Assembly (NCBI GenBank): GCA_024403135.1
Contig: JAKSSK010000001.1
Coordinates: forward strand, 830 to 64,829
DNA: 64,000 nt
Origin: Clostridia bacterium
GTDB taxonomy: Bacteria; Bacillota; Clostridia; Peptostreptococcales; Anaerovoracaceae
Direction of reading: 5' to 3'
A program made the translations under genes and the position numbers. Every line of letters begins with the position of its first letter. Position 1 is the stretch's first letter. This document shows, piece by piece, positions 10,460 to 59,300 of this stretch. The notes under the pieces were generated by a model, which had not been told where the DNA came from, made no database searches, and saw nothing but the letters and a program-made list of their open reading frames with translations.

Positions 10460-12373
10460 TTAGTACATATTTCTGATGATATACTTTGCATTTAGTTCAA
10501 AAGCTGCTCTAGGATGATCCAGTTCATAGTCCCTATGATAAAACTCCTCAACGTACTGAGCTATTAGCTGTTCCTCATCCATGCCCTTTCTAGACAGGAT
10601 GAAATTCCTAACCTCACCTGCAGCTTCAATGTACTTATCTAAGTAGTTGAAATCCTTAGGTACCAGTCCATAGTGTGGTGAATAAAGGTATTCAACATCC
10701 AATTCCTTAAGCTTTTTAGCAGATTTTATGCTCTCATCATAGCTCTTAAGTATTGATGTGGATATGAAGTCCTTGTTTACCAAAACTCCTGTGCTTTCAG
10801 ATGTAAACAGGAACTTATCCTTTAGGATATAGAAGGAAAGAGAGCAGTCGGTGTGACCTGGTGTATGTATCACCTTTATACCTTCAATCTCATCTTCAAG
10901 TATCCTATCTATCCTAAAGTCCCTACTAGATATATCTACATCCACCTTGTTATTTACCATAGCAACCTTTCCAAGTTTTATGATTGTATCTATTGCTCCT
11001 TCGCTATTAAAGACATCTTTAACCTTACTAGCTCCGCATACTACAGCATCTGGATAAGCTTTAAGCACGTAAGGAAGAGCCCCAATGTGGTCATAGTGGC
11101 TGTGGCTAAGCAGGATGTAGTCTAGCTTTCTATCTCCTAGCACTTCCTTGATATTTTTAATTAATTTTTCGTGGCAGTAAGCCATTCCTGTATCGTATAG
11201 GAAGGACTTGCCGTTATGGAAGAAAAGTATGGATTCTCCTCCCAGGCCTGCAGTAACCCTGTGGTAGTTTTCAGGGTAGGCAAATCTGCTGTTTCCTCCA
11301 AAGTCTTCGAAGGTCTTTCTCCTATATACCTTTAACCAGTTAAAGAAGATCATGGCCATGATTACAAAGCCCAGATATCCCTCTGCTGGGAACATGTATG
11401 CAACCACCTTCTTAAAACCGAATAGGCCGCATAGGAATCCAATCCAGGCAACTATTATTACTATCCACTTCTTCTTAGGTCCGTTCTTAATCTTGGTGGT
11501 AAAGCCGTAGTAGTTTGAAGTTGCAGCTCCAAAGACTGCAAACAGCATTACAACCGTGTATATCAGGTTAAACAGATTTCCCATCTTTAGGGATAGGCCA
11601 AGCATTGGCATGTCTAAGCTCTGAGATAGACCTGGATCTGTAAGCATTGTGCTAACAAGTAGCAGTGCCAACATTCCAAGCAGCCATCCACCAAACATTG
11701 TTCCAAAGTAAGCTGTCTTCTCATCCTTTGCGTTGATGGAAGATGTGGCAACGATTGGTATCATGGCTAGGATATTGTATGAAATATATATCCAGGCTGC
11801 TAAGAACCAGTTAGGTGCCATAAGACTTGGTGTTGGTTCTTCAGTGATACCCGACATTGGATAATCTCCAAAAGTTACGAATACGCAAACCGTAATAACT
11901 ATTACAAACAGCACCGGCATGATGAATCTAAAGGTCTTAGATACCCTTTCGAACTCTCCTAGCACAGTAAGAAGTGTAAAAACGATTAAAACTATGCCGC
12001 CTAAAATCTTGGATAGTCCAAATTGCTGGCTGAATATGCTTCCTGCAGCACTTGACATAGTAATTAATACGGTAAACATAATGAAGGCCATGAAGTAGCC
12101 AAAGATGTCTATTAAAACAGGATTGTCACTTGGCACGATGACCTTACCCATATCGTTGGTATTAAGCTTTCTAGCTATATATGCTGTCATAAGGCCAAAG
12201 ATTACGAAAAGTATTGCAATTAGCCCTATTCCAATGTATCCCTTATCGCCAAAGACACCAAAAAATTGCCAGATTTCCCTACCTGAGGCAAATCCGGCTC
12301 CCATTATGGTTCCAACGTACATTATGGCTACCGAAAACATGGATAGCTTTTTATTCTTCGTCTTTGAATTCAT
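10460..12373 (-). CDS. Fusion protein: YkvI-like polytopic membrane permease (N-terminal ~350 aa) plus MBL-fold metallo-hydrolase (C-terminal ~280 aa)
   Basis: The N-terminus MYVGTIMGAGFASGREIWQFF resembles the B. subtilis YkvI family and is followed by ~10 hydrophobic helices. The C-terminus carries the MBL motif LLSHSHYDHIG and TPGHT. Confidence 0.7.
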   Translation of the reverse strand: MNSKTKNKKLSMFSVAIMYVGTIMGAGFASGREIWQFFGVFGDKGYIGIGLIAILFVIFGLMTAYIARKLNTNDMGKVIVPSDNPVLIDIFGYFMAFIMFTVLITMSSAAGSIFSQQFGLSKILGGIVLIVFTLLTVLGEFERVSKTFRFIMPVLFVIVITVCVFVTFGDYPMSGITEEPTPSLMAPNWFLAAWIYISYNILAMIPIVATSSINAKDEKTAYFGTMFGGWLLGMLALLLVSTMLTDPGLSQSLDMPMLGLSLKMGNLFNLIYTVVMLFAVFGAATSNYYGFTTKIKNGPKKKWIVIIVAWIGFLCGLFGFKKVVAYMFPAEGYLGFVIMAMIFFNWLKVYRRKTFEDFGGNSRFAYPENYHRVTAGLGGESILFFHNGKSFLYDTGMAYCHEKLIKNIKEVLGDRKLDYILLSHSHYDHIGALPYVLKAYPDAVVCGASKVKDVFNSEGAIDTIIKLGKVAMVNNKVDVDISSRDFRIDRILEDEIEGIKVIHTPGHTDCSLSFYILKDKFLFTSESTGVLVNKDFISTSILKSYDESIKSAKKLKELDVEYLYSPHYGLVPKDFNYLDKYIEAAGEVRNFILSRKGMDEEQLIAQYVEEFYHRDYELDHPRAAFELNAKYIIRNMY

Positions 12374-12938
12374 CGTCGTAAAGGAAATCCCCTTCCATGT
12401 CCAGCGTCTTTTCTGAATAGTTCTCTATATCTATTAAATCCTTGAAGCTCATCACGTAGTCCTCTAGAGGATAGCTTAGGAAGTTATCGAAGTAGTACTC
12501 GTACTTTTCTCCTCCTAGAGCCTCGCCTCTTGCGTTTACTAGAGCATCTCTAAGGTTTATATACTCTTTGCTGCCGTCTTCTAAGCTGATGCAATATGAG
12601 CTTTCAGAGTCAAGATAGTACTTTCTAAACTTAGCTATTTCATCTGCTAAAAGTAGATATGTGCTATCCTCATCGCAGTTTAATGCCATTCCTATCATTG
12701 AATTTCCAATGTTTGAAAGAAGCGTGTAAAGGTCTACCGACTCCCCAGGAATGTGGTTTGAAATATCGTCAAAGTAGTTTCTAACAATATCTGCAAAGTT
12801 CTTTAGGTCAATATTCTTTAAAAGCATATATATTTCATCCGCGGAGATTTCTTCATCGGATTCTATTAGATTTTGAAAATCCTCAAAGTACTCAAATTCA
12901 CTGTATTCATCTATTCCAATTACTTTTAACAAACTCAT
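12351..12938 (-). CDS. Highly acidic hypothetical protein
   Basis: 195 aa with about 48 D/E against about 14 K/R by my count. AAGGAG RBS upstream. Its 3' end overlaps the start of the permease-MBL ORF by 23 nt. Confidence 0.6.
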   Translation of the reverse strand: MSLLKVIGIDEYSEFEYFEDFQNLIESDEEISADEIYMLLKNIDLKNFADIVRNYFDDISNHIPGESVDLYTLLSNIGNSMIGMALNCDEDSTYLLLADEIAKFRKYYLDSESSYCISLEDGSKEYINLRDALVNARGEALGGEKYEYYFDNFLSYPLEDYVMSFKDLIDIENYSEKTLDMEGDFLYDDEFKDEE

Positions 12939-18735: not shown

Positions 18736-19356
18736 ATGAGTAAAGCTTTAATCATTTCTTCATACGGAGAACACCTTAACAAGATAGATTTTGAAAGCCT
18801 TCAATACGACCACGTAATATGCGCTGATGCAGGCTACCTGGTTGCTAAGGACTTAGGCTTAAAGCCAGATACCTTAATCGGAGACTTCGATTCCATGGAT
18901 GCTCCTGATGATCTTGATGCCATCGTTCTTCCAAAGGAAAAGGACTTAACAGATTCAGAAGCTGCCTTTGACTGGGCTGTAAGACACGGCTTTACAGCAA
19001 TTACTATGATCGGTGGTCTAGGCGGAAGATTCGACCATACCATGGGTAACATTGGACTACTTGCAAAGTATACAAAGGCTAAGATTAACGTTAACATCAT
19101 CGATGGTCAAAACAAGGTATACATGCTTCGTCCTGGCATCCACCAGATTAAGAAGGATGGATACAAGTACTTAGGGCTATTAAGCTACGATACTGCTACT
19201 AAGGGAATCACCCTTGAAGGAGTAAAGTATCCTGTTAAGAATGAGATTCTTTCAAACGACACCACTTACGGTGTAAGTAACGAGATTACAAAAGATGAGG
19301 CAAAGCTATCCTTTACACAAGGTATGCTTCTTGTAATTCAAACTAAAGATATTTAA
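18736..19356 (+). CDS. thiN: Thiamine pyrophosphokinase
   Basis: Motifs GDFDS, EKDLTDSE and GGLGGRFDH typical of TPK; lies next to the TPP riboswitch and thiT. Confidence 0.85.
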   Translation: MSKALIISSYGEHLNKIDFESLQYDHVICADAGYLVAKDLGLKPDTLIGDFDSMDAPDDLDAIVLPKEKDLTDSEAAFDWAVRHGFTAITMIGGLGGRFDHTMGNIGLLAKYTKAKINVNIIDGQNKVYMLRPGIHQIKKDGYKYLGLLSYDTATKGITLEGVKYPVKNEILSNDTTYGVSNEITKDEAKLSFTQGMLLVIQTKDI

Positions 19357-19363
19357 TAATATG

Positions 19364-19475
19364 CTAGGGGAGCTTAAGCTGAGAAAGGATTTTTCCTGAC
19401 CCTTATAACCTGACGTGGATAATCCCACCGTAGGAAAGTTTAAACACCCCTCTAGTATTTTACTGGAGGTTTTTT
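19364..19475 (+). promoter_or_regulatory. TPP (THI-box) riboswitch with an SD-sequestering expression platform
   Basis: CTAGGGGAGC...GCTGAGA...ACCCTTATAACCTGACGTGGATAATCCCACCGTAGGAA matches the THI-box consensus. Downstream, CCTCTAG (19449-19455) can pair with CTGGAGG (19463-19469), which contains the thiT RBS. Confidence 0.9.
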
Positions 19476-19985
19476 ATGTCAAAGAAATTAACACTGTCGG
19501 CCCTTTTATGTGCCCTCTCCTTTGCCCTAGGGCTAATCAAGATATTCCATATGCCTCAAGGCGGAGATGTAACCCTATTATCCATGCTTCCTGTAGCCTT
19601 AGCTGGCTATCTGATGGGACCTAGAAACGGAGTGCTAGTAGGCGTAGCTACTGGAATACTTAATCTAATGATCACTCCTTTTGTGGTTCACCCTATCCAG
19701 CTAATCTTAGACTATATCGTAGCATTTGGAGTATTAGGCCTAGCAGGTATATTTAGAAATAGCCTTGCCAAGGGATATATCTTTGGTCTATCACTAAGGT
19801 ATATCGTGGCATCAATATCTGGCATAGTATTCTTTTCAAGCTATTTTCCTGAAGGAGTAAACGTGGTAGCTTTCTCCCTATGGTACAACCTTATCTACCT
19901 TGGAATTGAAGGAATTTTAACCTTAATCCTAATCCTAATTCCATCGGTAAATAAAGCATTTAGTGGCTTGAAAAAGCAAATATAA
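19476..19985 (+). CDS. thiT: Thiamine transporter ThiT (ECF S-component type)
   Basis: 169-aa, 6-TM small membrane protein directly controlled by a TPP riboswitch. Confidence 0.75.
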   Translation: MSKKLTLSALLCALSFALGLIKIFHMPQGGDVTLLSMLPVALAGYLMGPRNGVLVGVATGILNLMITPFVVHPIQLILDYIVAFGVLGLAGIFRNSLAKGYIFGLSLRYIVASISGIVFFSSYFPEGVNVVAFSLWYNLIYLGIEGILTLILILIPSVNKAFSGLKKQI

Positions 19986-29416: not shown

Positions 29417-29669
29417 ATATCTCCTCTAAAACTTTAGTGATGTCATCTGCCTTTACTCCAGGAAAACTTCTCTGTATGGCCTTTCGCTTAGCAGCTTTAT
29501 CTATGCAGTCTTTGCTTCCCTTGCAAAGGTAGACTCCTCTTCCCTTAGCTCTTCCCGATAGGTCAAGGCTAAGTTCATTCTCAAAGAAGGCAATTCTTAC
29601 CAGCTCTTCTTTAGGTTTTGAAACGCCACATCCGACGCATTTTCTCATAGGTACTTTTCTATCTTTCAT
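29400..29669 (-). CDS. ylxR: YlxR/RnpM (DUF448) RNA-binding protein
   Basis: MRKCVGCG...GRGVYLC motif, directly downstream of nusA. Confidence 0.85.
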   Translation of the reverse strand: MKDRKVPMRKCVGCGVSKPKEELVRIAFFENELSLDLSGRAKGRGVYLCKGSKDCIDKAAKRKAIQRSFPGVKADDITKVLEEIYGKDI

Positions 29670-30754
29670 TATTCTTCTTCTGATTCCATTTCTTCAAATT
29701 CGCCATAGGCTTCTTCATACTGTGATTGGCTCTTAATGTCAATCTTCCATCCGCTTACCTTAGCAGCAAGTCTTACGTTTTGTCCTTCCTTACCTATTGC
29801 AAGTGAAAGTTGGTAGTCAGGAACTACTACTGTAGCCATCTTTTCACCGTCGATGATAACCCTTTCAACCTTAGCTGGGCTAAGTACGCTTGAAATTAGT
29901 TCTTCTGGATCATCTGACCAAGTGATGATGTCTATCTTTTCTCCGTTAAGTTCATCTACTATGTTTTGAACTCTTGAGCCTCTAGTCCCTACGCAAGCTC
30001 CTACTGGATCTACGTTTTCGTCGTCTGTGTAAACAGCCATCTTAGTTCTTGATCCTGCTTCTCTTGCGATTCCCATGATCTCTACTGTTCCATCTTCAAT
30101 TTCTGGAACTTCTAGTTCGAACAGTCTCTTTACTAGACCAGGATGTGATCTAGATAAGAAGATTTGAGGTCCCTTGCTAGTTCTTCTAACATCCATGATG
30201 TACACCTTAAGTCTTTGACCTTCAGTGAAGTGTTCACCAGGAACCTGCTCTGCAACTGAAAGGATACCTTCAGTCATTCCAATATTAACGAAAATTGTTC
30301 CGTTTGATACTCTTTGAACTACACCTGTTAGGATTTCTCCTTGTCTTGTGATGTAGTTATCGAAGATCATGCCACGCTCAGCTTCTCTAATTCTTTGAAC
30401 TACTACCTGCTTAGCTGTTTGAGCTGCAATACGTCCAAAGTCAGCTGGTGTTACCTGGAACTCGATGTAGTCGCCAACTTCGTATCTTTCGTCGTAGGAC
30501 TTAGCTTCTTCGATGGAAATCTGTGTGCTTACGTCTTCCACTTCTTCAACTACGTCCATTCTTACGAATACGTTTACTTCTATGTTTTCTCTATCCACTT
30601 CTACTCTAACGTTTTCTGAAGTACCGTAGTCCTTCTTGTATGCTGAAACTAGAGCAGATTCGATGGCTTCAAAGATAACTTCCTGAGGAATTCCTTTTTC
30701 CTTTTCTAGTTCTTCTAAGCCTTCGATGAAATCCTTAGCTTGTTTATTGTTCAT
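29669..30754 (-). CDS. nusA: Transcription termination/antitermination factor NusA
   Basis: S1 and two KH domains (DPVGACVG.RG.RV, LAIGKEGQNVRLA). Confidence 0.95.
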   Translation of the reverse strand: MNNKQAKDFIEGLEELEKEKGIPQEVIFEAIESALVSAYKKDYGTSENVRVEVDRENIEVNVFVRMDVVEEVEDVSTQISIEEAKSYDERYEVGDYIEFQVTPADFGRIAAQTAKQVVVQRIREAERGMIFDNYITRQGEILTGVVQRVSNGTIFVNIGMTEGILSVAEQVPGEHFTEGQRLKVYIMDVRRTSKGPQIFLSRSHPGLVKRLFELEVPEIEDGTVEIMGIAREAGSRTKMAVYTDDENVDPVGACVGTRGSRVQNIVDELNGEKIDIITWSDDPEELISSVLSPAKVERVIIDGEKMATVVVPDYQLSLAIGKEGQNVRLAAKVSGWKIDIKSQSQYEEAYGEFEEMESEEE

Positions 30755-30766
30755 CTTTATATCCTC

Positions 30767-31228
30767 CTAAAACAACACTGCTAACTTTGTCTTTGAAATT
30801 GCTTCTAAAGGAAAACTATGGCTTCCCTTTTCGTCTTCGATGATAACTTGACCATCTACCAGTCCCTTTAGTGTTCCTTGAAATTCCTTCTGGCCGTCAA
30901 CTTGGCTGTATAGCTTTACGTCTACAACCCTTCCTGAATACTTCTGGTATTCCGCCTCATTTCTGATGGCCCTGTCCATGCCAGGCGATGATACTTCAAG
31001 GTAATAGTTTTGCTCTATTGGGTCTTCTTCGTCCAGTTTCTCAGATAGGAATCTTGAAACCAGCTCGCAATCATCGGTATCCACGTAGTCGTCCTTGTCG
31101 ATGTAGACCCTAAGGAACCAATCTCTACCTTCTTTTACAAATTCCACATCATATAGCTCTAGACCATTTTCTTCTAGGAATGGAGCAAGTAGATCTGAAA
31201 CCTGAGTGGTGATTTTTACTTTCGCCAT
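30767..31228 (-). CDS. rimP: Ribosome maturation factor RimP
   Basis: LEVSSPGMDR motif. Start moved to MAKVKITT (ATG at 31228), which has a GGAG RBS inside the track's N-terminal extension. Confidence 0.9.
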   Translation of the reverse strand: MAKVKITTQVSDLLAPFLEENGLELYDVEFVKEGRDWFLRVYIDKDDYVDTDDCELVSRFLSEKLDEEDPIEQNYYLEVSSPGMDRAIRNEAEYQKYSGRVVDVKLYSQVDGQKEFQGTLKGLVDGQVIIEDEKGSHSFPLEAISKTKLAVLF

Positions 31229-31243
31229 AGTCTCTCCTCTCAT

Positions 31244-31340: not shown

Positions 31341-34300
31341 CTAGAAGAAAGAAAGCTGATCAGTTTCAGGAAGTCCATCAAGGACTCCGTAGCTTCTTAA
31401 AGCTTCTATGCAGCTCTTGTTTGCCCCAGCTCTATTCTGTATCTCCTCAACAGTCTCAAATTTTGCCTTTTCGTATTCAGATGCGATGGCTTTTGCAGCT
31501 GTTTCTCCTACTCCGTCAAGTGCAACAAGTGGAAGTATTACCTTGCCATCTAAAAGGCCAAATTTTGTAGCAGAAGATACTCCTAATTTTGGAGCAGTAA
31601 ACTCATATCCTCTAGCGTGCATCTCGTATGCAACTTCAAGGACGATTAGTTCATCCTTTTCAAGTTTAGTTGCGTTGATGCTCTTTTGGGTTATTTCATC
31701 CATTCTCTGCTTAATCGCTCCCTTACCCTTTAGGCAGGCCGAAGCATTAAACTCAGCTACCTTGGTGGTGAAGTAAGTGGCATAAAACTCTCTTGGATAG
31801 TACACCTTAAACCAGGCCATTCTCCAGCTCATCATGGTGTATGCTACAGCATGGGCTCTAGGGAACATATACTTAATCTTCTTGCAGGAATCAATGTACC
31901 AGTTAGGCACGTTGTTTTCTATCATTATCTTTTCCTTATCCTCGGCTACTCCCTTACCCTTTCTAACCTTTTCCATGATGTCGAAGGCTATGTTGTTAGG
32001 AAGTCCCTTTAGGATCAGGTAGTTCATAATGTCGTCACGAGTTGAAATTACTTCTCTCATGGTGGCCTCTCCAGAACGTATATAGTCCTGGGCGTTGTTT
32101 AGCCATACGTCGGTACCGTGGGAGAAACCTGAAATTCGAATTAGGTCGGCAAACTTGTCCGGCTTTGTGTCGTCCAGCATCTGTCTAGTAAAGCTGGTTC
32201 CAAATTCAGGTATTCCAAAGCTTCCGTGGGTGAATATGTATTTCTTATCCAAGATATCCAAGGCTTCTGGCCCTGTGAATATGCTCTTTACCTTGTCATC
32301 CTTAAATGGTATTGAGTATGGATCTATCCCTGTCATATCCTGAAGCTGCCTGATCATGGAAGGTACATCGTGACCTAGTATGTCCAGTTTGAGCAGGTTC
32401 TGGTCTATCTTGTGGTAGTCGAAATGAGTAGTGATTATGTCCGATGTAGTATCGTTTGCTGGATGCTGCACTGGACAGAACTCATATATCTCATGGTCAT
32501 CGGGACATATTACTATACCGCCTGGATGCTGACCTGTAGTACGCTTAACTCCCGTACATTCAGATACAAGCCTATCCACTTCATACTTTGCTACAGGTAT
32601 CTGCCTTTCCTCAAAGTATTTCTTAACAAATCCATAGGCAGTCTTATCCTTGATGGTGCCTACTGTACCTGCCTTAAATACGTTCTTTTCGCCGAAGATT
32701 TCACCTACGTACTTGTGAGCTATAGGCTGGTATTCTCCTGCGAAGTTAAGGTCGATATCTGGCTCCTTGTTTCCAGTAAAACCAAGGAAGGTTTCAAATG
32801 GAATGGTAAATCCATCCTGCTTCATGGTAGCACCGCACTTAGGACACTTCATTTCTGGCATGTCGCAGCCACAGTCGTATAGATTTTGATCTCCCCATAC
32901 AAGCTCCTTGCAGTCAGGGCAGATATAGTGTGGGGGAAGTGGATTTACCTCTGTAATTCCTGACATTGTAGCTGCAAAGGATGAACCAACGGAGCCTCTT
33001 GAACCTACCAGGTATCCATCCTTATTGCTCTTTTCTACCAACATCTTAGCAGATACGTACATTACAGCGTATCCGTTACCTATAATTGAATTTAGCTCCT
33101 TATCCAGTCTCTTTTGAATAGGCTCAGGAAGTGGATCTCCATATATTTCATGTACCTTCTTGTAGCAAGATTCCTCTAAAATCTTCTCTGCATCCTTGAT
33201 CTTTGGTGGGCATTTCTCCTCAGGAACAGGGCGAATAGTGCCATCGATCATATCTGCAATCAAGTTGGTGTTATCTATTACAACCTCTTTTGCCTTTTCC
33301 TCACCTAGATAGCTGAATTCATCTAACATTTCCTGGGTTGTTCTAAGGAAAAGTCCTTCTCCATCCTCTGCATCCTTGTATCCTTGACCTGCAAAGAGGA
33401 TGTTTCTGTAAATGGCTGCTTCTGGCTCTGGGTAGTGAGCATCTGTAGTTGCTACTACTGGCTTACCCAGTTTTTCACCAAGATTTACAATGTATCTATT
33501 AATATCTTCAAGGTCAGTGATGGAGCTTACTATGCCCCTTTCTATCATGAACTTGTTGTTAATTCTAGGCTGTATTTCAAGGTAGTCGTATCTTGCTGCT
33601 ATTTCCTCTATTCTTTCCTTGCTATGCTTATTTCTAATTGCAGAATAAAGTTCACCTGCTTCACAGGCAGAACCGATAATCAATCCTTCCCTGTATTCAT
33701 TTAACAGTGACCAAGGAAGTCTAGGCTTTCTGTAGAAGTAGTCTAGGTGGGAAAAAGAAACCAGCTTGTACATGTTCTTTAGCCCTTCCTGAGTCTTTGC
33801 CAGGATAATGATGTGATGGGTGTTCGTTTGCTTGTATGAAACACTTCCGCCTTCATCATCAAAGACGTATCCTTCTAGGCCGTAGATAACCTTGAAGTCC
33901 TTGTATTTATCTGCAGCAGCCTTCATATCTGGAAAGGCTTGAACTACACCGTGGTCTGTAATGGCAACAGCCTTTTGTCCCCACTCATAGCTCTTCTTTA
34001 CAATGTCGCTAGGCTTGTTAAGGCCGTCCATCTGGCTCATAAGGCTGTGGCAGTGAAGCTCTACCCTCTTCTTTTCTCCCTGGTATGTTTCCATCCTCTT
34101 TGGAAGGCTTTCCGCCTGATTGATGTTATCCATCATGATGACAGTAGCTCCATTATCGAAGTTATCTATCTGAGGGTTACCTGAAACAAGGACTGTCTGT
34201 CCTTCAGATAAATTCTTTTCCAGTTGTTCTTTTTTATCTGGCTGCAAAAATGCCTTGCAGGCGATGGTTGATTTATGGTTTGTAACAAGGATAGATGCAA

Positions 34301-34985
34301 TGAAGCTTCCTCTCTTTGTCTGAGTAAAGGTTATTCTAAATATTTCACCCTTTATTGCAACAGGTCGGCCATCTGGTAGTACATCTTCAACCTCTATTGG
34401 GTTCATGTTTATTTCTTTTCCGAAGATTACCTTGCTCCTTGTCTTAACCTTAATTTCTTCGTGTTCTTCTTCTATCTCCTTTGTTACCTTTTCAAAGACG
34501 GTTTCGTTGTTTACAAATTCAAACTTAAAATTAATATTGAATGTTTCGTTAAAGGTGTGAGCATACTTTAAAGCTGCTCTTTCGTTAAGCATGTTTGCCA
34601 TAACTTCACCTAAAACTGGAACTCTAATAACCCCTTTATATACGGTTAGCTGTCTAAGCTGTATGGACTTGGTAAGGCTTGAGTATTCCTTATACTTTGC
34701 AATAAGGTATGGCAGATAGTTAATTGCAATTTCTTCTTCAGTAAGAATCATATTCTCATACCTAAATGTAAATACCACGTCCTCTAGGTCAGGTATCATA
34801 TTAAGGATGTCAAGCTTTATCCTCTTTACATCCATGTAAGGCATGACAAAATTGAGTACTAAATTGATGTATAGTACTCTTGTGTCCTTGTCGATATATG
34901 AACTTTCTACCTGATACACGTAGTCTGAAACTGGATGATCTCCAATTTCAGTAAGGTGCATGTGCTTATTTATCAGCTGTTCCAT
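31341..34985 (-). CDS. polC: DNA polymerase III alpha, PolC type, lacking the 3'-5' exonuclease domain
   Basis: PolC layout is present: OB fold, PHP (RVELHCHSLMSQMDG, ITDHG, YGLE), zinc finger CPDC..CPKC, palm EPDIDLNF and KLDILGHD, HhH tail. It is only 1214 aa, and YGLE is followed within ~20 aa by HHIIILAKTQEGLKNMYKLVS, the point where the exonuclease insert normally sits. Confidence 0.9.
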   Translation of the reverse strand: MEQLINKHMHLTEIGDHPVSDYVYQVESSYIDKDTRVLYINLVLNFVMPYMDVKRIKLDILNMIPDLEDVVFTFRYENMILTEEEIAINYLPYLIAKYKEYSSLTKSIQLRQLTVYKGVIRVPVLGEVMANMLNERAALKYAHTFNETFNINFKFEFVNNETVFEKVTKEIEEEHEEIKVKTRSKVIFGKEINMNPIEVEDVLPDGRPVAIKGEIFRITFTQTKRGSFIASILVTNHKSTIACKAFLQPDKKEQLEKNLSEGQTVLVSGNPQIDNFDNGATVIMMDNINQAESLPKRMETYQGEKKRVELHCHSLMSQMDGLNKPSDIVKKSYEWGQKAVAITDHGVVQAFPDMKAAADKYKDFKVIYGLEGYVFDDEGGSVSYKQTNTHHIIILAKTQEGLKNMYKLVSFSHLDYFYRKPRLPWSLLNEYREGLIIGSACEAGELYSAIRNKHSKERIEEIAARYDYLEIQPRINNKFMIERGIVSSITDLEDINRYIVNLGEKLGKPVVATTDAHYPEPEAAIYRNILFAGQGYKDAEDGEGLFLRTTQEMLDEFSYLGEEKAKEVVIDNTNLIADMIDGTIRPVPEEKCPPKIKDAEKILEESCYKKVHEIYGDPLPEPIQKRLDKELNSIIGNGYAVMYVSAKMLVEKSNKDGYLVGSRGSVGSSFAATMSGITEVNPLPPHYICPDCKELVWGDQNLYDCGCDMPEMKCPKCGATMKQDGFTIPFETFLGFTGNKEPDIDLNFAGEYQPIAHKYVGEIFGEKNVFKAGTVGTIKDKTAYGFVKKYFEERQIPVAKYEVDRLVSECTGVKRTTGQHPGGIVICPDDHEIYEFCPVQHPANDTTSDIITTHFDYHKIDQNLLKLDILGHDVPSMIRQLQDMTGIDPYSIPFKDDKVKSIFTGPEALDILDKKYIFTHGSFGIPEFGTSFTRQMLDDTKPDKFADLIRISGFSHGTDVWLNNAQDYIRSGEATMREVISTRDDIMNYLILKGLPNNIAFDIMEKVRKGKGVAEDKEKIMIENNVPNWYIDSCKKIKYMFPRAHAVAYTMMSWRMAWFKVYYPREFYATYFTTKVAEFNASACLKGKGAIKQRMDEITQKSINATKLEKDELIVLEVAYEMHARGYEFTAPKLGVSSATKFGLLDGKVILPLVALDGVGETAAKAIASEYEKAKFETVEEIQNRAGANKSCIEALRSYGVLDGLPETDQLSFF

Positions 34986-36012
34986 TATTAATTAAATCGT
35001 ATAGAGCATCTGGAATTTCCTCTTCCTTAACGCTCTTAATGATTTCTCCTTTTTTAAATAATAATCCCTTGCCGTCTCCACCAGCTACTCCAAAGTCTGC
35101 TTCCTTGGCTTCCCCTGGGCCGTTTACTGCGCATCCCATGATGGCAACGGTGATTCCGTCAAAGCCCTCTAGCTTTGCTTCGATCTTTTCAGTTAGACCT
35201 TCAAGGTCAATCTTGGTCCTTCCGCAGGTTGGACAGGATATATAGTTTACGCCCTGCTTTCTAAGGCCTAGGACTTTAAGTATTTCCTTGGCGTACTTTA
35301 CTTCTTCCACAGGGTTTGCTGTTAAAGATACCCTCATGGTATCTCCAATGCCGTCTAGTAACAGCGCACCAATACCAATTGCTGACTTGGTCTTTCCCAG
35401 TTTCATGGTGCCAGCCTCAGTAATTCCAATGTGAATTGGATGATCCGTTCTTTCAGACAGTATTTTATGGGCCTCATAGTTCATCTTAACGTCAGATGAC
35501 TTTAGAGAAACTACTAGGTTATCGTAGCCTAAGTCTTCAATTACCTTTAGATTTCTAAGGGCGCTTTCTGCAAGGCCTTCTGCAGTAACCTTGCCGTACT
35601 TAGCTAAAATATCCTTTTCTAGAGAGCCAGAGTTTACTCCGACTCTAATAGGGATATTTCTTTCCTTTGCAGCATCTACTACAACTTTAACGTTTTCAAC
35701 TGAGCCTATGTTACCAGGGTTAATTCTAACCTTGTCCACTCCAGCTTCAATTGCTGCCACAGCAAGGCGGTAATCGAAGTGAATGTCTGCTACTAGCGGA
35801 ATATGTATATGCTTTTTAACTTCCTTGATAGACTGTACTGACTCCATATCTGGAACTGCCATTCTAACTATCTCGCAGCCTGCTTCTTCAAGGTCTAGAA
35901 TCTGCTTTATTAAAGCCTTGCTATCCCTTGAGTCCACGTTGGTCATGGACTGAATGGTTATTGGCGCTCCGCCGCCTATCAGTACGTCTTTAACTTTTAC
36001 CTGTCTTGTCAT
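34966..36012 (-). CDS. ispG: 4-hydroxy-3-methylbut-2-enyl diphosphate synthase
   Basis: GcpE family with C-terminal CPTCGR...GCAVNGPGE cluster motifs. Start moved to MTRQVKV, which forms an ATGA overlap with the rseP stop. Confidence 0.92.
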   Translation of the reverse strand: MTRQVKVKDVLIGGGAPITIQSMTNVDSRDSKALIKQILDLEEAGCEIVRMAVPDMESVQSIKEVKKHIHIPLVADIHFDYRLAVAAIEAGVDKVRINPGNIGSVENVKVVVDAAKERNIPIRVGVNSGSLEKDILAKYGKVTAEGLAESALRNLKVIEDLGYDNLVVSLKSSDVKMNYEAHKILSERTDHPIHIGITEAGTMKLGKTKSAIGIGALLLDGIGDTMRVSLTANPVEEVKYAKEILKVLGLRKQGVNYISCPTCGRTKIDLEGLTEKIEAKLEGFDGITVAIMGCAVNGPGEAKEADFGVAGGDGKGLLFKKGEIIKSVKEEEIPDALYDLINNGTADK

Positions 36013-37004
36013 AGTAACCTCACTATATCGTTCCAAGTTATGTAGAACATCAGGGCAAGTAGAAGCAGCATTCCAATGGTATGGACTGTTCCTTCCATCT
36101 CGTCTGTTATCATCTTGCCTGTAACTTTTCTAATTATTACGAATAGGATTCTTCCTCCATCAAGGGCAGGAAATGGCAGCATGTTTACAAATGCTAAATT
36201 TAGGCTGATAAATGCCATCAGGTAGAAGAAGTACATAAGTCCAAGACTTGATGTCTGCCCTACTATGGATATTAGGCCTACTGGTCCAGCTAGATCATCC
36301 ATACCTGCTCTACCTGTAAAGAGCATTGCTAGTGAATCCACCATTGTGACGCACATCTGGCCTGTAGCCTTAATTCCTCTTGAAAGAGATGTTCCTAGGC
36401 TTTTATCTACCTTACAGGTTATGCCTATAACCTTCCTATTTGCTTCCTCGTCCAGTTTTACATTAACTTTGAGAGTTTGTTCATTACCATCTCTTAAAAC
36501 GGTAATACGGGCTGTTTTATCCTGTCCCTGCAGAAATTCTCCCACGTCGTTCCAAGTGTTTACAGCTTTACCGTCTATGTCGATTATTTGGTCCCCTTCT
36601 TGTATTACTCCATAAGCTGGCATTCCCTCCTGAACCTTATCTATGATGGTAGTTGCAGTACCTGTAGATGCTGCCATGATAATCATGATAACTACGCAGA
36701 TAAGCACGTTCATAAAGGAGCCTGCAACTAGAACGCATATCTTTTGCCATGCCTTCTTGTTGTTAAAAGCCCTTGGATTTTCTGATTCTTCGTTTTCTCC
36801 TTCCATGGCGCAGTATCCACCTATTGGAATGGCCCTAAGCGAGTAAAGGGTTTCTCCCCTTTGCTTCTTAAAGATTGCAGGACCCATTCCCAGCGCAAAT
36901 TCGTTTACCTGCACCTTGCACATCTTGGCTACTACAAAGTGACCAAGCTCGTGCGGAAAGATAAGCACGCAGAACAGTAGAATTGCTAGTATTGCTGTCT
37001 TCAT
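36009..37004 (-). CDS. rseP: Site-2 (M50) regulated intramembrane metalloprotease
   Basis: HELGHFVVA and NMLPFPALDGG motifs with one PDZ-like middle region. Confidence 0.9.
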   Translation of the reverse strand: MKTAILAILLFCVLIFPHELGHFVVAKMCKVQVNEFALGMGPAIFKKQRGETLYSLRAIPIGGYCAMEGENEESENPRAFNNKKAWQKICVLVAGSFMNVLICVVIMIIMAASTGTATTIIDKVQEGMPAYGVIQEGDQIIDIDGKAVNTWNDVGEFLQGQDKTARITVLRDGNEQTLKVNVKLDEEANRKVIGITCKVDKSLGTSLSRGIKATGQMCVTMVDSLAMLFTGRAGMDDLAGPVGLISIVGQTSSLGLMYFFYLMAFISLNLAFVNMLPFPALDGGRILFVIIRKVTGKMITDEMEGTVHTIGMLLLLALMFYITWNDIVRLL

Positions 37005-41002: not shown

Positions 41003-42193
41003 TTAATCTGTGTAGTTATCGAAATATCCTTGGATATATATAAACGGAGTTCCCTTGTCACCTGAACCTGATGTTAAGTCGCATAGTGAACCTAGTAGAT
41101 CTGTAAGTCTTCTAGGAGTAGTTCCTTCTGTTACCATCTGTCCTACAAGGTTTGAATCCTTCTCTCTAATAGCCTTTTCTATGGCTTCCTTTAGTTCTTC
41201 TCCTTGAAGGTCGCCAAAGTCGTTATCTGCTAAATATTTAAGCTTTAGTTCGTTAGGTTGTCCCTTAAGTCCAGCTGTATATCCAGGGCTAACTACAGGG
41301 TCAGCAAGCTCCCAAATCTTTCCTACAGGATCCTTGAATGCACCATCTCCATAAACCATAACTTCGATGGTCTTTCCTGTAAGCTTCCTTATCTCTTCCT
41401 GCACACCTTCTACGAATTCCTGGCAGTTAATTGGGAATAGCTTGATTGTATCTTCTGTAGCCTTGTTTGAACCTAGGATGCCGTAGTCAGGGTTATATCC
41501 TGAGCCATCTACAGGGCTATTAAGTAGATCGTCCATTCCTAGAACTACGCTAGCTCCAGCTTCCTTGATAAGTCTCTTAGTTCTTCTTCTGGTGTGGATA
41601 TCGCAGCAGATTACCTTGTCTGCGTAATCCACTATCTTTCTAGGGTTGTTGCTGAAGATGATCTCAGCTTCTGCTCCTTCTTCTTCAATTAATCCCTTAT
41701 AGTAGTTTACGTAGTCCACATTAGTAAATGTATGTCTTGACTTACCGAAGATCTTTTCAAACTCTTCTTGTGTAAGCACGTCTGTATATGGATTAACTCC
41801 CTTTTCGTCAAGCAGGTCTAAATCTAATAGATGGTTACCTACCTCGTCTGATGGATAGCTAAGCATTAAAACTACCTTCTTGCTTCCCTTAGCTATACCT
41901 CTAAGGCAGATTGCGAACCTGTTTCTAGATAAAATTGGAAATACCAGGCCTACAGTTCCCTTTCCTAGCTTGTTTTCCACGTCTTTAGCTAGATTGTCTT
42001 TACTTGCGTAGTTCTTCTGTGAGCGGGCAAGTATGGACTCTGTAATGGCTAGTACGTCTTTACTTCCAATTTCAAACTCTCCGTTGTTTAGGCAGTCCAT
42101 AAAGGTATCTACCACAATCTTCTTTAGATCGTCTCCTTCTCTTACGATTGGACCTCTAAGACCTCTTGATACTGTTCCGATTCTTCTACTCAT
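41003..42193 (-). CDS. F420-0:gamma-glutamyl ligase (CofE)-like family protein, long form, function unknown
   Basis: Three segments resemble archaeal CofE as I recall it: RGPIVREGDDLKKIV...VLAITESILARSQ; LGSNKATEDTIKLFP...IRKLTGKTIEVMVYGDG; and TEGTT...SGSGDKGTPFIYIQG. It is ~150 aa longer than CofE. Confidence 0.65.
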   Translation of the reverse strand: MSRRIGTVSRGLRGPIVREGDDLKKIVVDTFMDCLNNGEFEIGSKDVLAITESILARSQKNYASKDNLAKDVENKLGKGTVGLVFPILSRNRFAICLRGIAKGSKKVVLMLSYPSDEVGNHLLDLDLLDEKGVNPYTDVLTQEEFEKIFGKSRHTFTNVDYVNYYKGLIEEEGAEAEIIFSNNPRKIVDYADKVICCDIHTRRRTKRLIKEAGASVVLGMDDLLNSPVDGSGYNPDYGILGSNKATEDTIKLFPINCQEFVEGVQEEIRKLTGKTIEVMVYGDGAFKDPVGKIWELADPVVSPGYTAGLKGQPNELKLKYLADNDFGDLQGEELKEAIEKAIREKDSNLVGQMVTEGTTPRRLTDLLGSLCDLTSGSGDKGTPFIYIQGYFDNYTD

Positions 42194-50833: not shown

Positions 50834-51595
50834 CTATTCGTGAAAGTCGCTTCCTTGAGTTATATGTAGGTGATATTTTGAGGCTAAGGAGATAAAGAAG
50901 TTTTCAGCTTCATTATCGTGGGAAGGATGATAGCATTCAATTCCCTTTAGCCCAGCCTTTTTAAGTTCAAAGACGAGATTAGCCACTTCCTCTTTTGAAA
51001 GCTTAATCTCTCCTGGATGAGCAAGTACAGCCATGCCGCCAGCCTGGTTTATTAGCTCAATGGCATCCTTTGTATTAAGGCCCTTCTTTTGAATGGCCTT
51101 TATCTCATCCCTTTCAAATATGTTATCGAAGGCTTCTTTTTTTGTCTTTGCATATCCCTTGTTTACTAGAGCCATAGCAAAGTGTGGCTTTCCAAAGTAT
51201 GTCTGGCCAGGCCTTGCTATGACATCCTCCATGGTTATGTCATATCCAAGATCCTGCAAAGCCTTTAGAAGCCTAGCGTTTCTCTCTTTTCTGTTTTCCT
51301 GTAATTCCTTTAAGGTATCTATCAGCTTCTGGTTGGTTCTATCAAACTTATACCCTAAGATGTGTACCTTTACGCCCTCATGCGTCTTTGTAGATATTTC
51401 TACTCCAGGAATTACCTGTATCTCCAGAGCTTCCCCTGCTGTAAGGGCTTCATCAAGACCATCTATTCCATCGTGGTCTGTTATTGCCACGATATCATAT
51501 TCTTCGGCCTTTCTCTTTTTAATTATCTCTACAGGCTTTAAAGCCCCGTCTGAATATGTGGTGTGGATGTGGTAGTCCACCTTAAAATCCATCAT
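50834..51595 (-). CDS. PHP-domain phosphoesterase (YciV/TrpH-like; pAp phosphatase / 5'-3' exoribonuclease family)
   Basis: Motifs DYHIHTTYSDG, AITDHD, IPGVEIST and VHILGY. Confidence 0.8.
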   Translation of the reverse strand: MMDFKVDYHIHTTYSDGALKPVEIIKKRKAEEYDIVAITDHDGIDGLDEALTAGEALEIQVIPGVEISTKTHEGVKVHILGYKFDRTNQKLIDTLKELQENRKERNARLLKALQDLGYDITMEDVIARPGQTYFGKPHFAMALVNKGYAKTKKEAFDNIFERDEIKAIQKKGLNTKDAIELINQAGGMAVLAHPGEIKLSKEEVANLVFELKKAGLKGIECYHPSHDNEAENFFISLASKYHLHITQGSDFHE

Positions 51596-52122
51596 AAAAC
51601 CAAATTCCTTTCAAGGTTTGTTCTAGTCTTTTTGTCAGTTAAAATATCAACAAGTGTAAGGGCAAAGTCCATTGCCTTTCCTGGTCCTCTAGAAGTTACA
51701 ATGTTTCCATCAATTACTACAGAGTCCTTTTTAGGCTTACCCCCTATTAAGTATTCCTCCATACCTGGATAGATGGTGCATTTTCTTCCTTCAAGAAGGC
51801 CTAAATCTCCTAGTACAAGCGGCGCTGCACATATTGCACATATCCACTTATCCTTTGCCTTTAGAAGTTCTTCTCTAAGAAGTGTGCAGTCCTTTAGGTT
51901 GTTTGTGCCAGGCATTCCTCCAGGAAGTACAAACATGTCTACTGAGTTAAAATCTAAATCTTCAATAAGGGTATCTGCTTCCACGTAGATGTTATGTGCG
52001 CCCCTCACCTTTTTAGAGCCTACACCTACTGTCCTTACGTCTATCTTTACCCTTCTAAGCAGGTCAACTGCTGTAAGAGCTTCAATTTCTTCAAATCCAT
52101 CTGCTAAAAATATTGCTACCAT
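51592..52122 (-). CDS. DJ-1/PfpI (ThiJ/YajL-like) family protein
   Basis: Nucleophile-elbow motif ICAAP and the GFEEIEA start typical of the DJ-1 family. Confidence 0.85.
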   Translation of the reverse strand: MVAIFLADGFEEIEALTAVDLLRRVKIDVRTVGVGSKKVRGAHNIYVEADTLIEDLDFNSVDMFVLPGGMPGTNNLKDCTLLREELLKAKDKWICAICAAPLVLGDLGLLEGRKCTIYPGMEEYLIGGKPKKDSVVIDGNIVTSRGPGKAMDFALTLVDILTDKKTRTNLERNLVL

Positions 52123-52796
52123 TTTCCTCTCCTATCGAACATCTTGTCTGGGTCGCATATCCTCTTGGTGATGTAATATATTAGGAATATTAAAATTACG
52201 CTAAGAGCTGCATAGACAACGTCTACATTGATCCAGAAGTTACCCTTTGTAAACAGGATGCTTAGCACCGAGTCCTTTGCCAGTTTAATGCCTATCTGAG
52301 ATGCATAAAATGCGTTTCTTACAGGCTTTAATGCCAAGGCTATACCAGTTAATATTGTAAAAGCTAGCCCCGCTAAAACCCCAATTTTTACAGATGTGTA
52401 AATAAGCTCATCTTCTTCCTTTGCATAAAGGAAAAAGAAAAGGCCTATGAACATGAGAAGCAGTATTATGCCAATCAAAAGGCTGATACTTAGATAGTCT
52501 CTAAGCTCGAACAATATCTCCTGCTCAGTGTCTGAAAAGACAGGGTCGTTGGCGTATCCTGCGTTTTCAGTAATGTCCACCTCATCACCGAAGAAATCCC
52601 CTAAAAAATCTGACATTTGGTCAGCAAGATCGTTGGCAGTTAGGTCTAAAGTTGTATAGTCTATTGCCTGGGATTCATTTAAGTGATATGAGTAAACTTC
52701 AGGCGCTCTAAGTGAAATGTTTAGGGCCAAAAGACTTACTAAAAGTGGCAAAATTATTATTAATATGAAAGAACTAATTTTGTGTGCTTTCTTCAT
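52116..52796 (-). CDS. Integral membrane protein, function unknown (possibly TIGR01906/DUF1461-like)
   Basis: N-terminal TM helix, an extracytoplasmic acidic segment, then three more TM helices. First gene of the overlapping operon. Confidence 0.45.
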   Translation of the reverse strand: MKKAHKISSFILIIILPLLVSLLALNISLRAPEVYSYHLNESQAIDYTTLDLTANDLADQMSDFLGDFFGDEVDITENAGYANDPVFSDTEQEILFELRDYLSISLLIGIILLLMFIGLFFFLYAKEEDELIYTSVKIGVLAGLAFTILTGIALALKPVRNAFYASQIGIKLAKDSVLSILFTKGNFWINVDVVYAALSVILIFLIYYITKRICDPDKMFDRRGKW

Positions 52797-56086: not shown

Positions 56087-57262
56087 TTACTTCTCCTCTA
56101 TTACAGCGATTCCTGGTAAAACCTTTCCTTCAAGGAATTCTAAGGATGCTCCGCCACCTGTTGAGATGTGAGTCATCTTATCTCCTAGGCCAAACTTATC
56201 TACTGCAGCAGCTGAATCTCCGCCACCGATGATAGTGGTTGCATCACATTCAGCCATAGCCATAGCAACGCCTAAAGTGCCTTTTGAGAATCTATCGAAT
56301 TCAAATACTCCCATAGGTCCATTCCATACTACAGTGTTTGCGCTCTTGATGATTTCACTGTATTTCTTAACAGTTTCAGGACCCATATCTAGGCATTCCT
56401 TTTCTGCAGGAATCTCATCTATTGAGCCATAGTAAAATGGGCTTTCAGGGTCGTAGCCATCTGCAATAGCTACGTCTACTGGAAGAACCAGCTTATCCCC
56501 TGCCTTAGCCATAAGTTCCTTAGCTACGTCTAGGCTTTCTTCATCTAGAAGTGACTTACCTATTTCCTTACCCATGGCCTTGATGAAGGTGTATGACATT
56601 CCTCCTCCGATGATAAGCTTATCTACCTTTGAAAGCAGATTGTTGATTACTGGAATCTTGTCTGAAACCTTAGCGCCACCTAAGATTGCAACTAAAGGTC
56701 TCTTTGGATTTTCTATGGCGTTACCTAAGAACATAACTTCCTTTTCAATTAGAAATCCTGCTACGCAAGGAAGGTATTCTGCTACTCCTGCTGTTGATGA
56801 GTGAGCTCTATGAGCTGTACCAAAAGCATCGTTTACGAATACATCGCCTAGATCTGCAAGTTCCTTGGCAAAGTCCAGTCCGTTCTTGGTCTCTTCTTTT
56901 CTATATCTTACGTTTTCTAGAAGCATTACCTGTCCATCTTCTAAAGCATTTGCTCTTTCCTTGATGGAATCACAAACTACTGTAGGGCAGCTTGAGAAAA
57001 GCACTTCCTTTCCTAGAAGTTCACTTAACTTTTCTGCTACAGGCTTTAAGGTATACTTCATGTCTGGCGCGCCATCAGGTCTACCAAGGTGTGACATTAA
57101 TATTACCTTTGCTCCGTTTTCTAATAGATAGTTTATTGTAGGAAGGGCTGCTACGATTCTAGTATCGTCTGTAATTGCCCCGTCCTGCATAGGCACGTTA
57201 AAGTCCACTCTTACAAGGACTCTCTTACCCTTAACTTGTATATCTTTAATGGTCTTCTTCAT
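56087..57262 (-). CDS. pgk: Phosphoglycerate kinase
   Basis: Motifs RVDFNVP, SHLGRP and GGGDSAAA. Start moved to MKKTIKDI, which forms a TAATG overlap with the gap stop. Confidence 0.96.
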
Positions 57263-58272
57263 TACATACCTTTCTTGATAATATATTGAATTAAATCTAC
57301 TACTCTGTTGGAATAACCCCATTCGTTATCGTACCATGAAAGCACTTTAACCATGTTGCCTTCCTGAACCATTGTGGACAGGCTGTCAACGATTGATGAT
57401 CTTTCATCGTGCTTAAAGTCTATTGAAACTAAAGGTTCGTCACAGTAACCTAGGATGCCCTTCATATAAGTTTCACTAGCCTTCTTAAGAGCTTCGTTGA
57501 CTTCTTCCTTAGTTACGCTCTTTGAAACCTCAAATACAACGTCTACTACGGATACTGCAGGAGTTGGAACTCTCATAGCCATGCCGTTTAGCTTTCCTTC
57601 TAGCTGAGGAAGAACTAATGATACAGCCTTTGCTGCTCCTGTAGTAGTTGGAATCATTGATACTGCTGCAGCTCTTGATCTTCTTAAGTCGCTGTGAGGC
57701 AGGTCTAGAATTCTCTGGTCGTTGGTGTATGAGTGAATAGTTGTCATCATACCCTTAACGATGCCAAATTCCTTGTCCACTACCTTAGCTACTGGAGCAA
57801 GGCAGTTAGTAGTGCATGATGCGTTTGAAATTAGATTGTGAAGCTTAGGATCGTAAGTGTCGTCGTTTACTCCCATAACGATAGTCTTATCCACTTCCTT
57901 TGCAGGTGCTGAGAATACAACCTTCTTTGCTCCTGCAGCTATGTGAAGCATGCCGCCATCGTGGTTGTTAAACTTACCAGTTGATTCTAGCACTACCTCT
58001 ACTCCCAGTTCCTTCCAAGGAAGTTTGCTTGGGTCCTTTTCTGCTAAAATCTTAATTTCTTTACCGTTTACTACCATTGAGCTTTCCTTAGCTTCTACTG
58101 TTCCTTCAAACTTGCCAAAGCAGCTGTCGTATTTTAGTAGATGAGCTAAAGTTGCAGGATCTGTTAAGTCGTTAATTGCAACGATTTCAAAATCTACGTC
58201 CTTTGATTGGGCAATCTTAAATGCGTTTCTTCCTATTCTACCGAATCCGTTAATAGCTACTTTTGTCTTCAT
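57262..58272 (-). CDS. gap: Glyceraldehyde-3-phosphate dehydrogenase, typical bacterial type I
   Basis: Motifs [26 protein letters not shown] and [11 protein letters not shown]. Start at the ATG at 58272, 6 nt after GAGGTG. Confidence 0.95.
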
Positions 58273-58283
58273 AATTTTCACCT

Positions 58284-59300
58284 CTATTTTTGATCTACAC
58301 TGTACATGTGTCTAATCAGTTCAAGTGTCTTTGATGAATAGCCAAACTCGTTGTCGTAGAAAGCGATAAGCTTAAAGAACTTGTCGTTAAGCTCAATACC
58401 TTCCCTTGCGTCGAATATTGAAGTGCAGCTATCTCCAACAAAGTCGCCTGAAACTACTTCGTCATCGATGTATTCGATAACGCCCTTTAGATATGTCTGT
58501 GATGCTTCCTTAACCTTTGCACAGATGTCTGCGTAAGTGGCAGGCTTCTTAAGTACAACGTTAAGATCTATAACTGATACGTCACTTGTAGGGACTCTGT
58601 ATGAAATACCTGTCATCTTTCCCTTTAGTGAAGGGATTACTAGACCTACTGCCTTTGCAGCACCTGTAGTTGATGGAATGATGTTTCCGAATACGGATCT
58701 ACCAGTTCTCCAGTCCTTCATTGATCTTGCGTCAACAACCTTTTGCTTTGCTGTAGCTGAGTGAATAGTGCTCATTAGACCTTGGTCTATTCCCCAGTTG
58801 TCCTCTATAACCTTGCATAGAGGTGCAAGACAGTTTGTTGTGCATGATGCGTTGGATACTACAGGAATGTCCTTTGTGTATTCATCAGAGTTAACTCCAA
58901 ATACGAAGGTTGGTGTTACATCGTCCTTTGCAGGTGCTGAGATTATTACCTTCTTTGCTCCTGCCTTGATGTGGTCCATAGCCTTTTCTGTAGTTGTGTA
59001 AGCACCTGTTGCTTCAACTATGTACTCAGCACCACATTCTGACCAAGGAATGTTTATTGCCTCAGATTCAGAATATACAGGGACCTTCTTACCGTCTATG
59101 ATAAGTCCATCTTCATATCTGTCTAGTGGCTTTGGAAATCTTCCAAATGTAGTGTCGTACTTCAGCATGTATAGAAGATAATCGATGTCAGCGTTTCTTA
59201 CGTTAATACCTGCTATCTCGATGTCCTCCATATCCATGGAAGCTCTAACTACTACTCTTGCGATTCTACCAAAACCGCTAATACCTACTTTAATCGCCAT
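58284..59300 (-). CDS. Second, divergent GAPDH paralog (eukaryote/GapC-like clade) with an altered dinucleotide-binding signature
   Basis: [28 protein letters not shown] and YDNEFGYS match the GapC-like clade. However, it has GFGRIAR in place of GRIGR and GINV in place of (A)IND. Confidence 0.9.

Follow-up and report, generated by a model that had tools for sequence, protein, structure and literature searches.

An exonuclease-less PolC with a complete PHP metal site in a Clostridia bacterium near the Anaerovoracaceae

PolC-type DNA polymerase III is a target of antibiotics and serves as the textbook case of a replicase that carries its own DnaQ-type proofreader. The hallmark of the typical PolC architecture, found in 86% of PolCs, is a DEDDh 3'-5' exonuclease (Exo) inserted inside the PHP domain, while 6% of PolC sequences are without the Exo insertion (Timinskas et al. 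2014, NAR 42:1393, PMC3919608). These exo-less proteins, which the literature keeps classed as PolC, were exclusive to Clostridia and Negativicutes, bar one extra copy in Thermotogae, and in these two groups they were paired with DnaE1 (PMC3919608). Table S2 of that paper gives a PolC of the layout NTD-OB-PHP-POL3-HHH2 (NTD, N-terminal domain; HHH2, tandem helix-hairpin-helix, HhH) together with DnaE1 in 12 genomes, and its sequence table includes the PolCs of Acidaminococcus fermentans and A. intestini (1191 and 1210 amino acids (aa)), which have the NTD+OB+PHP+Pol3+HhH architecture and the PHP signature HHDHEHCDH (9/9). In 2026 the same group mapped PHP and DnaQ proofreaders across >3000 species (PMC12926913), and two Family XIII species, Aminipila butyrica and Mogibacterium diversum, are in the genome list of that survey. 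We searched the literature and came across no biochemical work on an exo-less PolC. Here we describe the polC gene of a 64,000-nucleotide stretch of a Clostridia bacterium genome (assembly GCA_024403135.1, contig JAKSSK010000001.1, positions 830 to 64,829), hereafter the window, and compare it with these systems.

The gene encodes a PolC from which the DEDDh exonuclease has been precisely excised at the domain boundaries. As the existence, the taxonomic restriction and the PHP status of such proteins were published in 2014 and revisited in 2026, the window PolC is real but not new: it adds one further example and a family-level distribution in Anaerovoracaceae, and no new phenomenon. An earlier interpretation made from the letters of the DNA (the sequence-only reading) had described a full PolC layout with a set of listed motifs in a continuous frame free of stops and shifts, and this description holds. 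The open reading frame (ORF) is a single frame of 1214 aa with an ATG start and zero internal stops. It scored well above the cut-offs of the two NCBIfam PolC equivalog hidden Markov models (HMMs), with 1433.8 bits against a cut-off of 873 for NF001688 and 1321.6 bits against 1043 for TIGR01405, and an NCBI protein named 'PolC-type DNA polymerase III [Clostridia bacterium]' is 100% identical to it. Pfam matched PHP (residues 309-466), DNA_pol3_alpha, DNA_pol3_finger, HHH_6 and, weakly, an OB fold (209-279). The domain order is thus NTD - OB - PHP - Pol3 - (HhH)2, with the OB fold N-terminal to PHP. The features of the gene are as follows:

31341..34985, minus strand: polC ORF, an exo-less PolC-type DNA polymerase III alpha (1214 aa; ORF list and PolC HMMs)
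34461..34985, minus strand: PolC N-terminal domain, then a short low-complexity linker to the OB fold (about aa 1-175; alignment with relatives)
34149..34361, minus strand: OB fold, N-terminal to PHP (aa 209-279; Pfam tRNA_anti-codon, E=1.4e-4, below the gathering score)
33306..34067, minus strand: PHP domain, uninterrupted (aa 307-560; Pfam PHP)
33816..33872, minus strand: PHP/PHP junction GYVFDDEGGSVSYKQTNTH, the canonical DEDDh exonuclease site (aa 372-390; alignments to 3F2B and 9qpc)
31920..33182, minus strand: polymerase core with palm, thumb and fingers (aa 602-1022; Pfam DNA_pol3_alpha and DNA_pol3_finger)
32835..32921, minus strand: Cys4 zinc finger C689, C692, C714 and C717 (read from the sequence)
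31368..31577, minus strand: tandem helix-hairpin-helix DNA-binding module (aa 1137-1206; Pfam HHH_6, E=1.7e-8)
31344..31358, minus strand: C-terminal beta-clamp-binding motif QLSFF (aa 1210-1214; read from the sequence)

The motifs RVELHCHSLMSQMDG, CPDC...CPKC, EPDIDLNF and KLDILGHD are all present, as is the HhH tail. The catalytic Asp triad of the palm consists of D743, D745 and D868, and it was kept in 82/82 aligned sequences. In the alignment with relatives all four zinc-finger cysteines were invariant, the N-terminal domain was conserved, and from the clamp motif Q1210 and F1214 were invariant, the C-termini of the relatives reading QLSLF, QLSFF or QLCMF. PolC clamp motifs at this same C-terminal position are tabulated in the Timinskas 2014 supplement (PMC3919608). 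Every PolC hallmark that we tested (HMMs, domain order, Asp triad, Cys4, clamp motif and locus) was found, the Exo insertion excepted. Taken together, these elements make up an intact PolC polymerase with its DNA-binding, zinc-finger and clamp-binding parts and an uninterrupted PHP domain carrying all nine canonical metal ligands.

The absence of the exonuclease was seen in each comparison that we made. No RNase_T or other DEDDh domain matched the window PolC in Pfam, even at E<=1. The PolC equivalog profiles matched it in two stretches, the second of which joins query residue 382-383 to profile position 607 of 1445. In the alignment to 9qpc, a solved full-length PolC, the first stretch stops at chain residue 441 and the second begins at 629, so that ~187 residues are absent, in keeping with the ~190-200-aa DEDDh insert that the sequence-only reading had reported missing between the two PHP segments. 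The sequence across the junction (within nucleotides 33756-33890, that is aa 366-410) is VIYGLE(371)-GYVFDDEGGSVSYKQTNT-H(390)H(391)IIILAKTQ; E371 of YGLE and H390/H391 of HHIIIL are separated by the 18 residues GYVFDDEGGSVSYKQTNT, where about 20 had been estimated. In the alignment to 3F2B, an engineered PolC without the exonuclease (delta-Exo), this natural junction coincides with the artificial GSGSG linker of the construct. The match of the naturally excised region to an engineered boundary is a modest addition of the present analysis. We also built an HMM, PolC-Exo, with 107 exonuclease inserts taken from related PolCs; DIETTG, HNAEFD and HHRADDDA are part of its consensus. The exo-bearing PolCs used as positive controls scored a median of 237 bits, whereas the model matched neither the window PolC nor any of the six-frame ORFs of the window.

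Anaerovoracaceae-like Clostridia share the exo-less state across the family, and this distribution is a second modest addition. A scan of one genome per bacterial species gave 80 loci, all of the same exo-less layout, with 51-69% identity to the window PolC, and in each of them the match to residues 1-1214 spans only ~3.7-3.9 kb. Most of the named loci belong to Anaerovoracaceae / Clostridiales Family XIII, with Emergencia, Aminipila, Ihubacter, Aminicella, Brotomerdimonas, Senimuribacter and Clostridium aminobutyricum among them. Several are cultured isolates (Clostridium aminobutyricum DSM 2634, Emergencia timonensis SN18, Aminicella lysinilytica DSM 28287, Brotomerdimonas butyrica), and the complete chromosome of Ihubacter sp. 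rT4E-8 carries the same exo-less layout. Among the best 120 homologues in a 5.8-billion-protein collection, PF00929 was found in 0/120. Where the insertion used to be, 82 related sequences have a linker of 19-39 aa, mostly 24. With 1214 aa the window PolC is the shortest full-length member of the family (1260-1300 aa in relatives), because it has a shorter linker between the NTD and the OB fold, which makes up most of the difference, plus two small loops; this alignment ruled out a further domain loss as the cause. The linker itself, acidic and of low complexity (window 34430-34470, minus strand, ~aa 173-185), is ~40-70 residues shorter than in all close relatives.

The PHP domain carries all nine metal ligands (H311 H313 D320 H345 E371 H391 C441 D515 H517). 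They align 9/9, one-to-one, with those of Mycobacterium tuberculosis DnaE1 (5LEW) and Thermus aquaticus Pol III alpha (2HPI), which bears out the earlier view that all nine positions are occupied. The sequence-only reading had also given N in place of D in the last PHP motif of the Bacillus-type enzyme, and two solved exo-bearing PolCs do have N at the D515 position ('atgnvhy' versus 'attdahy' in the window PolC). The signature HHDHEHCDH was present in 81/81 complete relatives, with the nine ligands invariant. The window PolC thus shows the features by which the exo-less subgroup is recognised, namely NTD+OB+PHP+Pol3+HhH without Exo, a Clostridia host and a perfect PHP site (HHDHEH[C/H]DH).

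Is retention of the PHP site coupled to loss of Exo? Among the 150 nearest 50%-identity representatives from a 1.84-billion-protein library (query residues 15-1214), 29 were exo-less and 112 had an insert of ~200 aa. A perfect PHP site was found in 26/29 exo-less versus 70/112 exo-bearing PolCs (Fisher p=0.006, phylogeny ignored), which is suggestive of a coupling between Exo loss and PHP retention. A count of Exo losses on a crude neighbour-joining tree was set aside, as the exo-less sequences were scattered over ~17 changes and the tree was not trusted.

One locus with two polC genes was met in this work (L082:3702-11537, ENA ERZ27319752 contig k141_497749). There, a canonical 1400-aa PolC with RNase_T is followed in tandem by P0210, an exo-less PolC of 1178 aa with a degraded PHP ligand signature (HRSLENSDQ). 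As P0210 lies directly downstream of the canonical PolC, it is a second, spare copy. Resolvase and TnpB-like genes and many unannotated ORFs lie near this tandem.

How, then, would the exo-less PolC be proofread? The DEDDh exonuclease was lost from PolC in a family-level lineage, with the polymerase, zinc-finger, HhH and clamp elements kept. In the mechanism that we propose, 3'-5' proofreading may have been taken over by the PHP domain of PolC via its nine-residue metal site, and the exo-less PolC probably has as its working partner a DnaE1-type polymerase from another part of the genome, a pairing reported from Clostridia and Negativicutes. An exo-less PolC that proofreads through PHP and has DnaE1 as second replicase is the most likely arrangement that we can infer from the metal ligands and the published pairing. 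The larger share of perfect PHP sites among exo-less PolCs and the position of P0210 beside a canonical PolC lend this inference comparative support. We are inclined to believe, with some reserve, that the window gene is the primary functional polC of an uncultured Clostridia bacterium near Anaerovoracaceae, that it belongs to the published exo-less subgroup, that its PHP domain proofreads and that it probably has a DnaE1 partner. On the broader proposition that PHP is the sole cis proofreader of the PolC replicase in Anaerovoracaceae-type Clostridia, we find the case evenly balanced.

Several points weigh against this interpretation. We know of no PolC PHP domain with demonstrated exonuclease activity, and an intact metal site is necessary for nuclease activity but no proof of it. 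The association between the PHP site and Exo is not phylogenetically independent and concerns only the representatives most similar to the window PolC. No DnaE1 gene was found within the 64-kb window by the Pfam scan, which covered 59/64 ORFs of at least 130 aa (those free of overlap with an opposite-strand gene), and for the DnaE1 partner, as for the lack of a DnaQ-like subunit farther away in the genome, the basis is the literature.

The division of labour could also be the reverse, with PolC devoid of cis proofreading and demoted to a specialised or secondary role while a DnaE1 with an active PHP domain carries out most of the chromosome replication. This possibility goes back to Timinskas et al., and it agrees with their observations that clostridial DnaE1 has all that a self-sufficient replicase requires, that DnaE1 occurs alone in some Clostridia and that exo-less PolCs are confined to this group (PMC3919608). 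However, ~80 species keep the PolC locus together with the full length, the catalytic residues, the clamp motif and the perfect PHP site, and this conservation argues for strong selection on the whole of PolC including PHP. We consider such a demotion of PolC unlikely.

Proofreading could instead come in trans from a DnaQ-like DEDDh exonuclease that has a gene of its own and docks on PolC, like epsilon on Escherichia coli alpha; the sequence-only reading had named this option beside PHP proofreading in cis. Bacterial proteomes contain on average >3 stand-alone DnaQ homologues (PMC12926913), and candidates are probably present elsewhere in this genome. The sequences around polC speak against it: neither dnaE, a second polC nor an RNase_T/DEDDh exonuclease was found among the scanned ORFs of the window, and in the relatives the sequence within 10 kb of polC likewise contains no gene for a DEDDh exonuclease. 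In 1.54 Mb of sequence (six-frame ORFs of the window and 81 polC loci), PolC-Exo matched nothing at E<=1. As the positive controls were strong, this empty search ruled out that the Exo domain was split off into an adjacent gene, and therefore the lineage has no split-off neighbouring exo gene. The lack of an adjacent replacement exonuclease is the third modest addition of our analysis. A trans-acting subunit would, moreover, leave the 9/9 conservation of the PHP site unexplained, and we regard it as distinctly improbable.

The explanation by an assembly artefact or a decaying pseudogene or paralog, to which the origin of the window from a metagenome-assembled genome (MAG) could lend colour, is effectively refuted: an assembly deletion is ruled out by the identical 1214-aa protein in a separate Logan assembly of run SRR17543905 and in the NCBI MAG GCA_024500545.1, and by the same architecture in cultured isolates and a complete chromosome, and a pseudogene or degenerate paralog by the open frame, the invariant motifs and the canonical locus. 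The sequence-only reading had likewise seen a clean domain loss in an intact gene; the independent assemblies, the synteny, the family-wide architecture and the intact catalytic, zinc-finger and clamp motifs agree with it.

If PHP proofreading by the window PolC and its relatives is true, they would be the first PolC-type enzymes to proofread through PHP rather than DnaQ, and would represent a natural reversion to the proposed ancestral bacterial proofreader. A general rule would then be that exo-less PolCs which are the sole PolC keep PHP 9/9, the PHP-dead exo-less PolC that we examined being the one adjoining a canonical PolC. For a test of PHP proofreading in a PolC, naturally exo-less enzymes with a perfect PHP site are well suited, and they bear on the division of labour in the poorly understood PolC + DnaE1 system of Clostridia.

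The gene lies in the array pyrH-frr-uppS-cdsA-dxr-rseP-ispG-polC-rimP-nusA-infB-rbfA-nrnA-truB-ribF-pnp, which is the classical Firmicutes order (Pfam on the neighbours). The upstream order matches that of the complete Ihubacter sp. rT4E-8 chromosome (L067), and the genes downstream of nusA (infB, rbfA, an nrnA-like gene, truB, ribF and pnp) were identified by Pfam. The nearest neighbours are:

34966..36036, minus strand: ispG (gcpE), upstream neighbour of polC (GcpE Pfam match on the same gene in L081)
30767-31243, minus strand: rimP, downstream neighbour of polC (RimP Pfam match in L081)
29669-30754, minus strand: presumably nusA, downstream of rimP (ORF translation and position)

Other features of the window were noted alongside. 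A stand-alone 253-aa PHP protein (50834-51595, minus strand), located between a GlpP-like antiterminator gene and a DJ-1/PfpI gene, came closest to 3',5'-nucleoside bisphosphate phosphatase and RNase RNM, in both cases with scores under the curated cut-offs. It was considered as a trans proofreader and rejected, as it resembles pAp phosphatase / RNase RNM (TrpH family) and shows no evident link to DNA proofreading or to replication. Two full-length glyceraldehyde-3-phosphate dehydrogenase genes (339 and 338 aa) stand in tandem at 57262-59300 (minus strand), upstream of pgk and tpiA. The sole Rfam match in the window is a TPP riboswitch (19356-19453, plus strand, 68.7 bits), which lies downstream of a thiamine pyrophosphokinase gene and immediately precedes a ThiT/YuaJ-type thiamine transporter gene (19476-19985). 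In the 396-aa protein encoded at 41003-42193 (minus strand), the 218-position F420_ligase (CofE-like) Pfam profile is spread over residues 11-389, implying a large insertion; the protein is far below the NCBIfam CofE cut-offs and is an unusual CofE relative for a gut-type Clostridia genome. A 637-aa protein (10460-12373, minus strand) has a C-terminal metallo-beta-lactamase domain (aa 380-567) weakly like the ComEC C-terminal domain, and its N-terminal 380 residues are without a family match. Finally, two ORFs in gene-like positions (12351-12938 and 52116-52796, both minus strand; 195 and 226 aa) had no Pfam or NCBIfam match.

Four known systems can be set beside the window PolC. M. tuberculosis DnaE1 (5LEW) and Thermus Pol III alpha (2HPI) share with it all nine PHP ligands, and the same mode of proofreading is proposed; they differ in being DnaE-type, with a C-terminal OB fold, no PolC NTD and no zinc finger. 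The PHP exonuclease activity of the Thermus and M. tuberculosis enzymes was reportedly shown by experiment (Stano 2006, Rock 2015; cited in PMC12926913), while in the window PolC it is inferred.

The delta-Exo PolC of Geobacillus kaustophilus (3F2B/3F2C/3F2D) aligns with the window PolC in full from the OB fold through to the C-terminus (query 199-1214, 1070 bits), residue 199 being where the alignment with the OB region of 3F2B begins, and its exonuclease is gone at the same point of PHP. In contrast to the natural protein it is man-made, with a GSGSG linker, without the N-terminal domain and with N at the D515 position, and the junction of the window PolC is 8 residues shorter. Evans et al. 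reportedly crystallised the engineered protein as a ternary complex in 2008 (3F2B), so the deletion is compatible with the fold.

Canonical PolC (B. subtilis, S. aureus; 9qpc, 1474 aa) shares with the window PolC all other domains, the catalytic residues and the zinc finger, and both genes adjoin rimP-nusA-infB. It differs by the ~187 residues with the DEDDh exonuclease, and the PHP metal site, which is imperfect in the solved PolCs, is complete in the window PolC. The Acidaminococcus fermentans PolC (YP_003399045.1, 1191 aa) is like the window PolC in its domain architecture, its HHDHEHCDH site (9/9), its length of ~1200 aa, the clamp motif at the extreme C-terminus and the anaerobic Firmicutes host. 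The two differ in lineage and in the clamp motif itself: the Acidaminococcus protein belongs to the Negativicutes and ends in QIELF, whereas the window PolC comes from Anaerovoracaceae-like Clostridia and ends in QLSFF.

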